Assembly: GCF_003334785.1 (NCBI RefSeq)
Contig: NZ_QOWV01000073.1
Source: Escherichia coli
GTDB taxonomy: Bacteria > Pseudomonadota > Gammaproteobacteria > Enterobacterales > Enterobacteriaceae
Reading direction: 5' to 3' (one strand)
DNA length: 800 nt
The notes beneath the pieces are model-generated. The model had not been told where the DNA came from. It saw only the letters and a list, made by a program, of their open reading frames with translations, and searched no databases. The position numbers were made by a program, and so were the translations under genes. Below are positions 1-800 of this stretch, piece by piece (position 1 is the first letter of the stretch; each line of letters starts with the position of its first letter).

Positions 1-800
1 CTGCTCGGTGCAAAGGTCCTTCCCGGTGAAACCGACATCGCCCTGCCCGGCCCGCTGCCGTTCATCCTCTCCCGCACCTACAGCAGTTACCGGACAAAAA
101 CGCCCGCGCCGGTGGGGAGCCTCGGCCCCGGCTGGAAAATGCCTGCGGATATCCGCTTACAGCTGCGCGATAACACACTGATACTCAGTGATAACGGCGG
201 CAGAAGCCTGTATTTTGAGCACCTGTTTCCCGGTGAGGACGGTTACAGCCGCAGCGAGTCACTGTGGCTGGTGCGCGGCGGCGTGGCGAAACTGGATGAA
301 GGTCACCGGCTGGCCGCACTCTGGCAGGCGCTGCCGGAAGAACTCCGCTTAAGTCCGCATCGTTATCTGGCGACAAACAGTCCGCAGGGGCCGTGGTGGC
401 TGCTCGGTTGGTGTGAGCGGGTGCCGGAAGCGGATGAGGTGCTGCCTGCGCCGCTGCCGCCGTACCGGGTACTGACCGGGCTGGTGGACCGCTTCGGGCG
501 CACACAGACGTTCCACCGCGAAGCCGCCGGTGAATTCAGCGGCGAAATCACCGGCGTGACGGATGGTGCCTGGCGTCACTTCCGGCTGGTACTGACCACG
601 CAGGCGCAGCGGGCAGAAGAAGCCCGGCAGCAGGCCATTTCCGGCGGGACGGAACCGTCCGCTTTTCCTGATACCCTGCCGGGTTACACCGAATATGGCC
701 GGGACAACGGCATCCGTCTGTCTGCCGTGTGGCTGACGCACGACCCGGAATACCCGGAGAATTTACCTGCCGCGCCGCTGGTGCGCTATGGCTGGACGCC
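1..800 (+). CDS. Rhs-family polymorphic toxin core protein (YD-repeat protein), internal fragment of the N-terminal conserved region; partial at both ends
   Basis: Seen in sequence: frame +1 is open for all 266 codons (1..798, plus 2 nt), checked codon by codon; codons are GC3-rich (ctg, ccg, ggc, cgc dominate). Translation: LLGAKVLPGETDIALPGPLPFILSRTYSSYRTKTPAPVGSLGPGWKMPADIRLQLRDNTLILSDNGGRSLYFEHLFPGEDGYSRSESLWLVRGGVAKLDEGHRLAALWQALPEELRLSPHRYLATNSPQGPWWLLGWCERVPEADEVLPAPLPPYRVLTGLVDRFGRTQTFHREAAGEFSGEITGVTDGAWRHFRLVLTTQAQRAEEARQQAISGGTEPSAFPDTLPGYTEYGRDNGIRLSAVWLTHDPEYPENLPAAPLVRYGWT. Established knowledge, recalled from memory and not searched: blocks such as GETDIALPGPLPFILSRTYSSY, GPGW, RSESLWLVRGG, LATNS.QGPWW.LGW, VLPAPLPPYRVLTG, GEITGVTDGA, FRLVLTTQAQRAEEAR, AFPDTLPG, GIRLSAVWL.HDP.YPE.LPAAPLVRY match the N-terminal region of E. 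coli-type Rhs core proteins (RhsA/B/C-like). The ATG at 139..141 is an internal Met codon, not a start; the true start and stop are outside the window. Confidence 0.9.
   Translation, partial: MLGAKVLPGETDIALPGPLPFILSRTYSSYRTKTPAPVGSLGPGWKMPADIRLQLRDNTLILSDNGGRSLYFEHLFPGEDGYSRSESLWLVRGGVAKLDEGHRLAALWQALPEELRLSPHRYLATNSPQGPWWLLGWCERVPEADEVLPAPLPPYRVLTGLVDRFGRTQTFHREAAGEFSGEITGVTDGAWRHFRLVLTTQAQRAEEARQQAISGGTEPSAFPDTLPGYTEYGRDNGIRLSAVWLTHDPEYPENLPAAPLVRYGWT

Follow-up and report, generated by a model that had tools for sequence, protein, structure and literature searches.

An 800-nt segment common to rhsA and rhsB of Escherichia coli K-12 encodes a DUF6531 plug domain and the predicted start of the Rhs shell

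We analyzed a stretch of E. coli DNA of 800 nucleotides (the whole stretch is referred to here as the window). Over its full length (positions 1 to 800, plus strand), the window is an internal segment of the rhsA/rhsB coding sequence, an assignment based on an exact match to the genes of E. coli K-12 MG1655, on the NCBIfam profile NF041261, and on dN/dS. The match to MG1655 was 100% for both rhsA and rhsB, at nt 154 to 953 of each gene, and the first base of the window lies 153 nt (51 codons) past the ATG of both genes, in the annotated frame (i.e., codons 52 to 317, read in frame +1). Gene identity, frame, and position can thus be read directly from the alignment. The parent proteins, which are named RhsA and RhsB in RefSeq, are WP_000015300.1 (1377 aa) and WP_000015298.1 (1411 aa). 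An earlier note on this DNA, written from the letters alone, had placed the window wholly within an Rhs gene, at residues ~50 to 320 of an Rhs protein of ~1400 aa. The window proved to be an exact substring of rhsA and rhsB in their annotated frame, at residues 52 to 317 of 1377 or 1411 aa, and this first call from sequence alone was accurate within a few residues. The genes rhsA and rhsB have been known since 1984.

In a six-frame translation, frame +1 had no stop across 266 codons, and the other five frames had 4 to 11 stops each; the open frame of 266 aa reported in the earlier note was therefore stop-free on re-translation. Frame +1 stayed open in only 21 of 20,000 composition-preserving shuffles of the window bases. 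The G+C content of the window was 64.9% overall and 72.9% at third codon positions. Compared with the diverged paralog rhsD, the window showed 38, 36, and 114 differences at codon positions 1, 2, and 3, respectively, and dN/dS was 0.21 in frame +1 versus >1.7 in both shifted plus-strand frames. We conclude that the open frame is real and not a product of chance and that it is under purifying selection.

The dN/dS values of the shifted frames also argue, for the plus strand only, against an additional, independent feature in the window (for example, an antisense gene, structured RNA, or internal terminator). Such a feature is extremely unlikely. The signals that could be taken for one were two minus-strand open reading frames (ORFs) at 349 to 741 and 185 to 505 (130 and 106 aa, respectively), a 13-nt inverted repeat at 525 to 556, and a terminator-like hairpin at 643 to 660. 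Long antisense ORFs are expected at 65% G+C, and we rejected the 130- and 106-aa ORFs as by-products of this composition. The hairpin has a 5-bp stem and a poor T tract, and the two matches reported for it represent one site against 0.5 ± 0.8 expected; as a terminator, it was rejected as probably due to chance. The repeats inside the window ORF, which were limited to short two-copy matches and the single 13-nt inverted repeat, were likewise judged to be due to chance. Within the window, RefSeq annotates nothing besides rhs, an Rfam scan of both strands (E ≤ 1) gave no match, and no promoter-like sites were found on either strand. Models of defense systems (PADLOC) also gave no match.

For comparisons among paralogs, the rhsA, rhsB, and rhsC loci were taken from one MG1655 record. 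Between gene nt 82 and 1892, rhsA and rhsB did not differ at a single position; this 1811-nt tract (L001 7929 to 9739) contains the window. There were 22 differing positions in the first 3689 nt of the two genes, followed by unrelated tips, and the upstream flanks were also unrelated (162 mismatches in 240 nt). Because the 1811-nt tract is identical in rhsA and rhsB, the window is not assignable to one paralog over the other, and any reads or windows drawn from this tract are likewise without paralog assignment, which matters for read mapping and assembly. It was recA-dependent unequal crossing-over between rhsA and rhsB that led to the name "rearrangement hot spot" (PMC2935791; PMC3150448), and the identical tract is a ready substrate, i.e., the kind of sequence behind this classic rhsA/rhsB unequal crossover.

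The other K-12 paralogs were compared in the same register. Three nucleotide mismatches separate rhsC from the window; those at window positions 66 and 408 are synonymous, and that at 571 (codon 191 of the window, RhsA residue 242) changes W242, the residue of RhsA and RhsB, to the G found in RhsC. Among 30 aligned homologs, at least 90% have G at position 242 (DGAGRRF consensus), which points to W242 as a derived state common to the two identical copies. Residues 52 to 321 of RhsD aligned with the window end to end, with a protein identity of 76 to 78% and a DNA identity of 77%. The NCBIfam family NF041261 ("RHS element core protein") matched window aa 1 to 266 at profile positions 52 to 325 of 1261 (E = 4e-162), with a score of 541.7 bits to be read against a cutoff of 2000 bits that is set for the whole protein and is out of reach for a 266-aa fragment. 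Near-identity, frame, and register all place the window in the E. coli RhsA/B/C subfamily.

We examined the spread of the window by megablast against 5,426 complete E. coli genomes. The window was found at 12,015 places in 3,886 of these genomes (median, three per genome), with a best identity of ≥99% in 3,180 records, and the matches were annotated as RhsA, RhsB, RhsC, or "RHS element core protein." In contrast, only 1,796 genomes contained the 3' toxin tip of rhsA, at a total of 1,828 places (median, one). The same division was observed between RhsA and RhsD, whose identity was 71 to 92% per 100-residue block across the rest of the core and 23% in the tip, with a collapse only past the DPLGL motif at residue 1247. 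Given an identity to RhsD of 77%, as in the core, and 12,015 versus 1,828 places, the window belongs to the conserved scaffold and not to the variable part of the gene, in agreement with the earlier note. [quoted passage not shown] We rejected this possibility for the two K-12 subfamilies, since the 77% identity to RhsD is at the level of the core.

At the protein level, a search of 5.8 billion proteins returned 469 matches. The best 120 of the 469 were all Rhs or DUF6531 proteins, and these came from E. coli, Shigella, Salmonella, Citrobacter, and Enterobacter; the identity among them was as low as ~60%. Matches P0005, P0055, P0067, P0074, and P0104 carry the name "type IV secretion protein Rhs," apparently an old misnomer that annotations have passed on; Rhs proteins are not known to be linked to type IV secretion.

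An 800-nt window is unable to show that its parent gene is intact, and one alternative is that it derives from a truncated or decayed rhs remnant (i.e., a pseudogene) encoding nothing functional. Remnants consisting only of the 5' part do exist: in strain WL297, window nt 1 to 248 are all that is present, joined to a DUF4329 tip under a pseudogene annotation. In addition, rhsB is annotated as frameshifted in ER1709, and many short "partial" database proteins cover the window region. Most of these partial proteins are nevertheless on contigs of ~1 kb, which points to assembly ends, and the orphan fragments that lie downstream of rhs genes have no N-terminus and so would not contain the window segment. 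No stop or frameshift interrupts the window itself, which matches the intact MG1655 genes exactly, and at least 80% of the window was present in 3,879 of the 3,886 matching genomes. An origin from a remnant is thus very unlikely.

The two annotated pseudogene cases can be described further. The WL297 remnant (NZ_CP128613.1, L007 4848 to 5791) is situated between rpmE and metJ, joins the first ~139 codons (the DUF6531 part) to the DUF4329 tip, and appears to have lost the entire shell through an internal deletion. It adjoins an "RHS element protein dsORF-f3," an IS1 fragment, and an ISAs1 transposase, and a 456-aa DUF4329+DUF6531 protein (P0027) is present in other strains. For ER1709, a K-12 derivative, the annotation at L002 7848 to 12082 gives rhsB as a frameshifted pseudogene, and the gene is intact in MG1655.

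Beyond the window, the parent genes have the complete layout of an Rhs core gene. Pfam places ten RHS repeats (E ≤ 0.001) between residues 361 and 892 of RhsA, of which residues 1 to 1200 were scanned, and an RHS domain (PF03527) at 1143 to 1179. They are followed by a DPIG-x18-DPLG motif at 1221 to 1246 and by PVTNTDPLGL, the PxxxxDPLGL boundary, at 1238 to 1247, with equivalents in RhsB and RhsC. These domain assignments and motifs were observed directly in the parent genes. RhsA, RhsB, and RhsC diverge past nt ~3690 to 3745 into mutually unrelated tips of 130, 164, and 150 aa, respectively, and the G+C content changes from 60 to 65% in the core to 34 to 42% in the tip and downstream. Small genes lie downstream in K-12, namely, yibA (rhsA), yhhH (rhsB), and ybfB (rhsC). 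The parent genes thus have the layout given in the earlier note, a variable C-terminal toxin with its immunity gene behind it, as seen in the AT-rich variable tips and small downstream genes; the evidence for toxicity and neutralization is from the literature. [quoted passage not shown]

Farther downstream of each K-12 rhs gene, we observed AT-rich orphan modules (L001 12874 to 15448; L003 3860 to 5487; L005 929 to 2449). In these modules, "RHS repeat-associated core" fragments truncated at the N terminus are followed by small genes of their own (yibG, an Imm57 pseudogene, and ybfC), and ISAs1-family (H-rpt) transposases are also located downstream of the K-12 rhs genes. This arrangement matches the tip-displacement model that Jackson et al. 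put forward in 2009.

Within the window, the 5' part (positions 1 to 216, plus strand) was assigned to the N-terminal plug ("cork") of the Rhs shell, Pfam DUF6531 (RhsA ~48 to 123), on the basis of PF20148 and structure alignments. DUF6531 (PF20148) matched window aa 3 to 72 (E = 1.1e-14) and was the sole Pfam domain in the window; in full-length RhsA, it spanned residues 46 to 123 (E = 2.2e-17). The window thus contains the plug characteristic of Rhs/YD-repeat shell proteins, for which the structural role is taken from studies of relatives (PMC10684867; PMC8765631). In the cryo-EM structure of Tse5, DUF6531 is the N-terminal plug (residues 48 to 124), which closes one opening of the Rhs barrel and also holds the cleaved 47-residue PAAR-like N-terminal fragment, the cleavage point being K47|P48 (PMC10684867). 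The DUF6531 plug is also present in the structure of RhsA of Pseudomonas protegens. In that protein, the cleavage point is H304|P305, and A312-K313 lies eight residues further along (PMC8765631).

The same spacing was found in E. coli RhsA, which has H47-P48 and A55-K56. The first 15 nt of the window (positions 1 to 15, plus strand; codons L52-L53-G54-A55-K56) form the tail of the conserved motif H47|P48-VNPLLGAK, as judged by alignment to the cleavage region of related Rhs proteins. The profile alignment described below begins at RhsA P48, which is paired with residue 1 of the Tse5 shell fragment (PVNPLLGAKVLPGETD versus PVNPMLGSKLLPEEVD). The putative cleavage point, H47|P48, would therefore be 4 codons upstream of the window start.

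Upstream of this point, the ~47-residue Rhs N terminus carries a single PAAR motif. Residues 2 to 29 of RhsA (GKPAARQGD...) gave weak matches to the final repeat in two PAAR proteins, 9rce_c (E = 0.0057) and 4jiv_D (E = 0.048), and no PAAR domain was detected by Pfam at the RhsA N terminus. In length and position, RhsA residues 1 to 47 look like the minimal "PAAR-like" N terminus of Tse5. All four K-12 Rhs proteins begin with MSGKPAARQGDMTQYGG... (RhsA residues 1 to 51, L001 7848 to 8000).

The remainder of the window (positions 217 to 800, plus strand) is the predicted first part of the beta-barrel shell (RhsA 124 to 317), with degenerate repeats, as suggested by collinearity with the Tse5 shell. 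No Pfam RHS/YD repeat (PF05593) was detected within residues 52 to 317, and no YDxxG motif occurs before residue 326. The first weak RHS_repeat match covers residues 318 to 351, directly past the window, and the first significant one covers 361 to 392; tandem YD repeats are therefore found in the parent gene and not inside the window. With respect to the Rhs/YD-repeat scaffold proposed in the earlier note, the Rhs scaffold is upheld, but the window itself is outside the repeat array and corresponds to the plug and the pre-YD start of the shell.

Residues 1 to 460 of RhsA were modeled with AlphaFold2 (30-sequence alignment), but the model had a mean pLDDT of 47.5, with values of <50 for residues 1 to 220, and was too poor to use. 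For this reason, a profile search of PDB sequences was performed and not a fold search. The profile, which was built from 30 homologs, matched the Tse5 shell chain collinearly (E = 1.4e-51), with RhsA 48 to 170 aligned to Tse5 shell residues 1 to 119, RhsA 215 to 250 aligned weakly to 146 to 180 (i-E, 370), and RhsA 286 to 433 aligned to 189 to 342 (E = 7e-18). It also matched Rhs1 of Photorhabdus (7q97; E = 1e-30) and Salmonella bongori Rhs core structures. These alignments allow the window to be placed on the solved Tse5 structure as almost the entire plug (window aa 1 to 72) and the first part of the barrel (window aa 73 to 266). Residues 124 to 317 would accordingly be located in the barrel, a placement that for residues 171 to 285 is based on collinearity and one weak alignment.

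The least conserved stretch of the window is at positions 601 to 702 (plus strand; RhsA ~252 to 285), which is described here with low confidence as a predicted helix (252 to 265) followed by a low-confidence loop, with insertions and deletions relative to RhsD and other homologs. There were 6 gap columns against RhsD within residues 201 to 300, and the consensus of the homolog alignment was undefined at ~252 to 285. In the AlphaFold2 model, strands were present from residue 208 on, with low confidence; the helix at 252 to 265 had a pLDDT of ~63 to 66, and residues 270 to 288 were below 50.

Taken together, these results make us highly confident that the window comprises codons 52 to 317 of an RhsA/B/C-subfamily Rhs core gene and encodes the N-terminal closure of the Rhs cocoon. 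For E. coli RhsA, which neither a solved nor a confidently predicted structure covers, the structural reading is by homology; the three-dimensional role of residues 124 to 317, the N-terminal cleavage, and the delivery route are accordingly proposed by analogy with relatives. Judging from the homologous Tse5 and P. protegens RhsA, the chain probably cuts itself at H47|P48, immediately ahead of the window, and the resulting PAAR-like peptide of ~47 aa would be retained by the plug. The DUF6531 plug, residues ~48 to 123, would close the shell at its N-terminal opening, and the spiralling beta-sheet barrel would begin with residues 124 to 317. The barrel would then be completed by the YD repeats (from ~320), the RHS core domain, and the DPIG-x18-DPLG aspartyl-protease plug, and the completed shell would enclose the variable toxin, i.e., the ~130 to 165 aa that follow PxxxxDPLGL at residue 1247. 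In strains with a type VI secretion system (T6SS), Rhs proteins of this kind would be loaded on the VgrG spike and fired into neighboring cells, with the downstream immunity gene protecting the producer.

Regarding delivery, the general statement of the earlier note that Rhs toxins are often exported through a T6SS is textbook knowledge, but the context of the K-12 copies, with no vgrG neighbor and no T6SS, lends it no support. No vgrG was found beside K-12 rhsA, rhsB, or rhsC, for which the upstream neighbors are yibF, nikR, and ybfA, respectively; thus, neither a linked vgrG, eagR, or T6SS cluster nor a T6SS elsewhere in the genome accompanies these copies. The K-12 and B laboratory strains are without a T6SS, and most other E. 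coli strains carry one (PMC6730261). Since K-12 has no T6SS, its copies are unable to use this route in their own strain, and T6SS delivery of K-12 RhsA/B/C is suggested by relatives. In enterohemorrhagic E. coli (EHEC), the RhsA/B/C clade is unlinked to vgrG, and the authors considered it unclear which VgrG, if any, translocates these proteins (PMC7216683). A role in interbacterial antagonism was confirmed experimentally for the EHEC rhsA orthologue Z5014 (Rhs-CT5), and T6SS dependence was shown for the related Rhs-CT1 and Rhs-CT3 (both from Ma et al. 2017, as cited in PMC6730261).

Alternatively, in T6SS-less strains such as K-12, RhsA/B/C, with the N-terminal region encoded by the window, may serve a T6SS-independent function, e.g., as an intracellular stationary-phase toxin/antitoxin or in a polar capsule-export complex. 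K-12 keeps three intact ORFs of the RhsA/B/C subfamily with no vgrG neighbor and no T6SS (PMC6730261), and the doubt of the EHEC authors about a VgrG carrier for RhsA/B/C (PMC7216683) points in the same direction. So do the reported block of stationary-phase viability by the RhsA tip and the work of McNulty et al. (2006), as cited in PMC2935791, who observed cross-linking of RhsA to KpsD and a reduced amount of group 2 capsule in an rhsA mutant. On the other hand, the proteins retain the full architecture of T6SS Rhs effectors (i.e., a putative PAAR-like start, plug, shell, aspartyl protease, and toxin/immunity pair), Z5014 (Rhs-CT5) acts in interbacterial antagonism in EHEC (Ma et al. 2017, as cited in PMC6730261), and no PADLOC defense system was matched. 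Moreover, most nonlaboratory E. coli strains have a T6SS, and the simplest explanation for the K-12 state is therefore that the secretion system was lost. We therefore consider a T6SS-independent function in such strains unlikely. It is slightly less likely still that RhsA/B/C in K-12 have such a role with the PAAR-like peptide and plug adapted to it and not to mounting on VgrG. The preferred reading of the window segment remains that of the N-terminal closure of an Rhs effector shell.

The rhsA/rhsB genes, their family, and their architecture are already known, and the Rhs layout of shell, plug, and toxin has been solved structurally in relatives. The closest known systems are RhsA and RhsB of E. 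coli K-12 themselves, which show no difference from the window over its full length. RhsC and RhsD of K-12 share the architecture and register of the window's parent genes, with RhsD being a member of the separate RhsD/E subfamily that has small insertions and deletions relative to the window within residues 201 to 300.

Among structurally characterized proteins, Pseudomonas aeruginosa Tse5 (PDB 8cp6), a T6SS Rhs pore-forming toxin, closely resembles RhsA in layout, with a PAAR-like N terminus of ~47 aa (putative in RhsA), a proline at position 48 at the cleavage site (predicted in RhsA), a DUF6531 plug, and a barrel. In contrast to RhsA, it carries a different toxin and is secreted by the T6SS of its own strain, whereas K-12 has none; it is also a distant sequence relative, and a single-sequence search aligned the plug only. 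RhsA of P. protegens and Rhs1 of Photorhabdus laumondii (PDB 7q97) have plugs homologous to window aa 1 to 72, and the His|Pro dipeptide at which P. protegens RhsA is cleaved is also present in E. coli RhsA, with Ala-Lys eight residues on. Both proteins have ~240 to 300 extra N-terminal residues (prePAAR, transmembrane helices, a full PAAR domain, and an anchor helix) that E. coli RhsA lacks. In searches of PDB sequences, Tc toxins and teneurins gave no significant sequence match to the window, but the BC components of Tc toxins and the teneurins are YD-shell proteins that follow the same cocoon principle as Rhs. Teneurins have an unrelated FN-plug. The BC components of Tc toxins contain a domain homologous to the Rhs plug (PMC8765631), which in these toxins forms a constriction and not a seal, the shell being closed by a beta-propeller.
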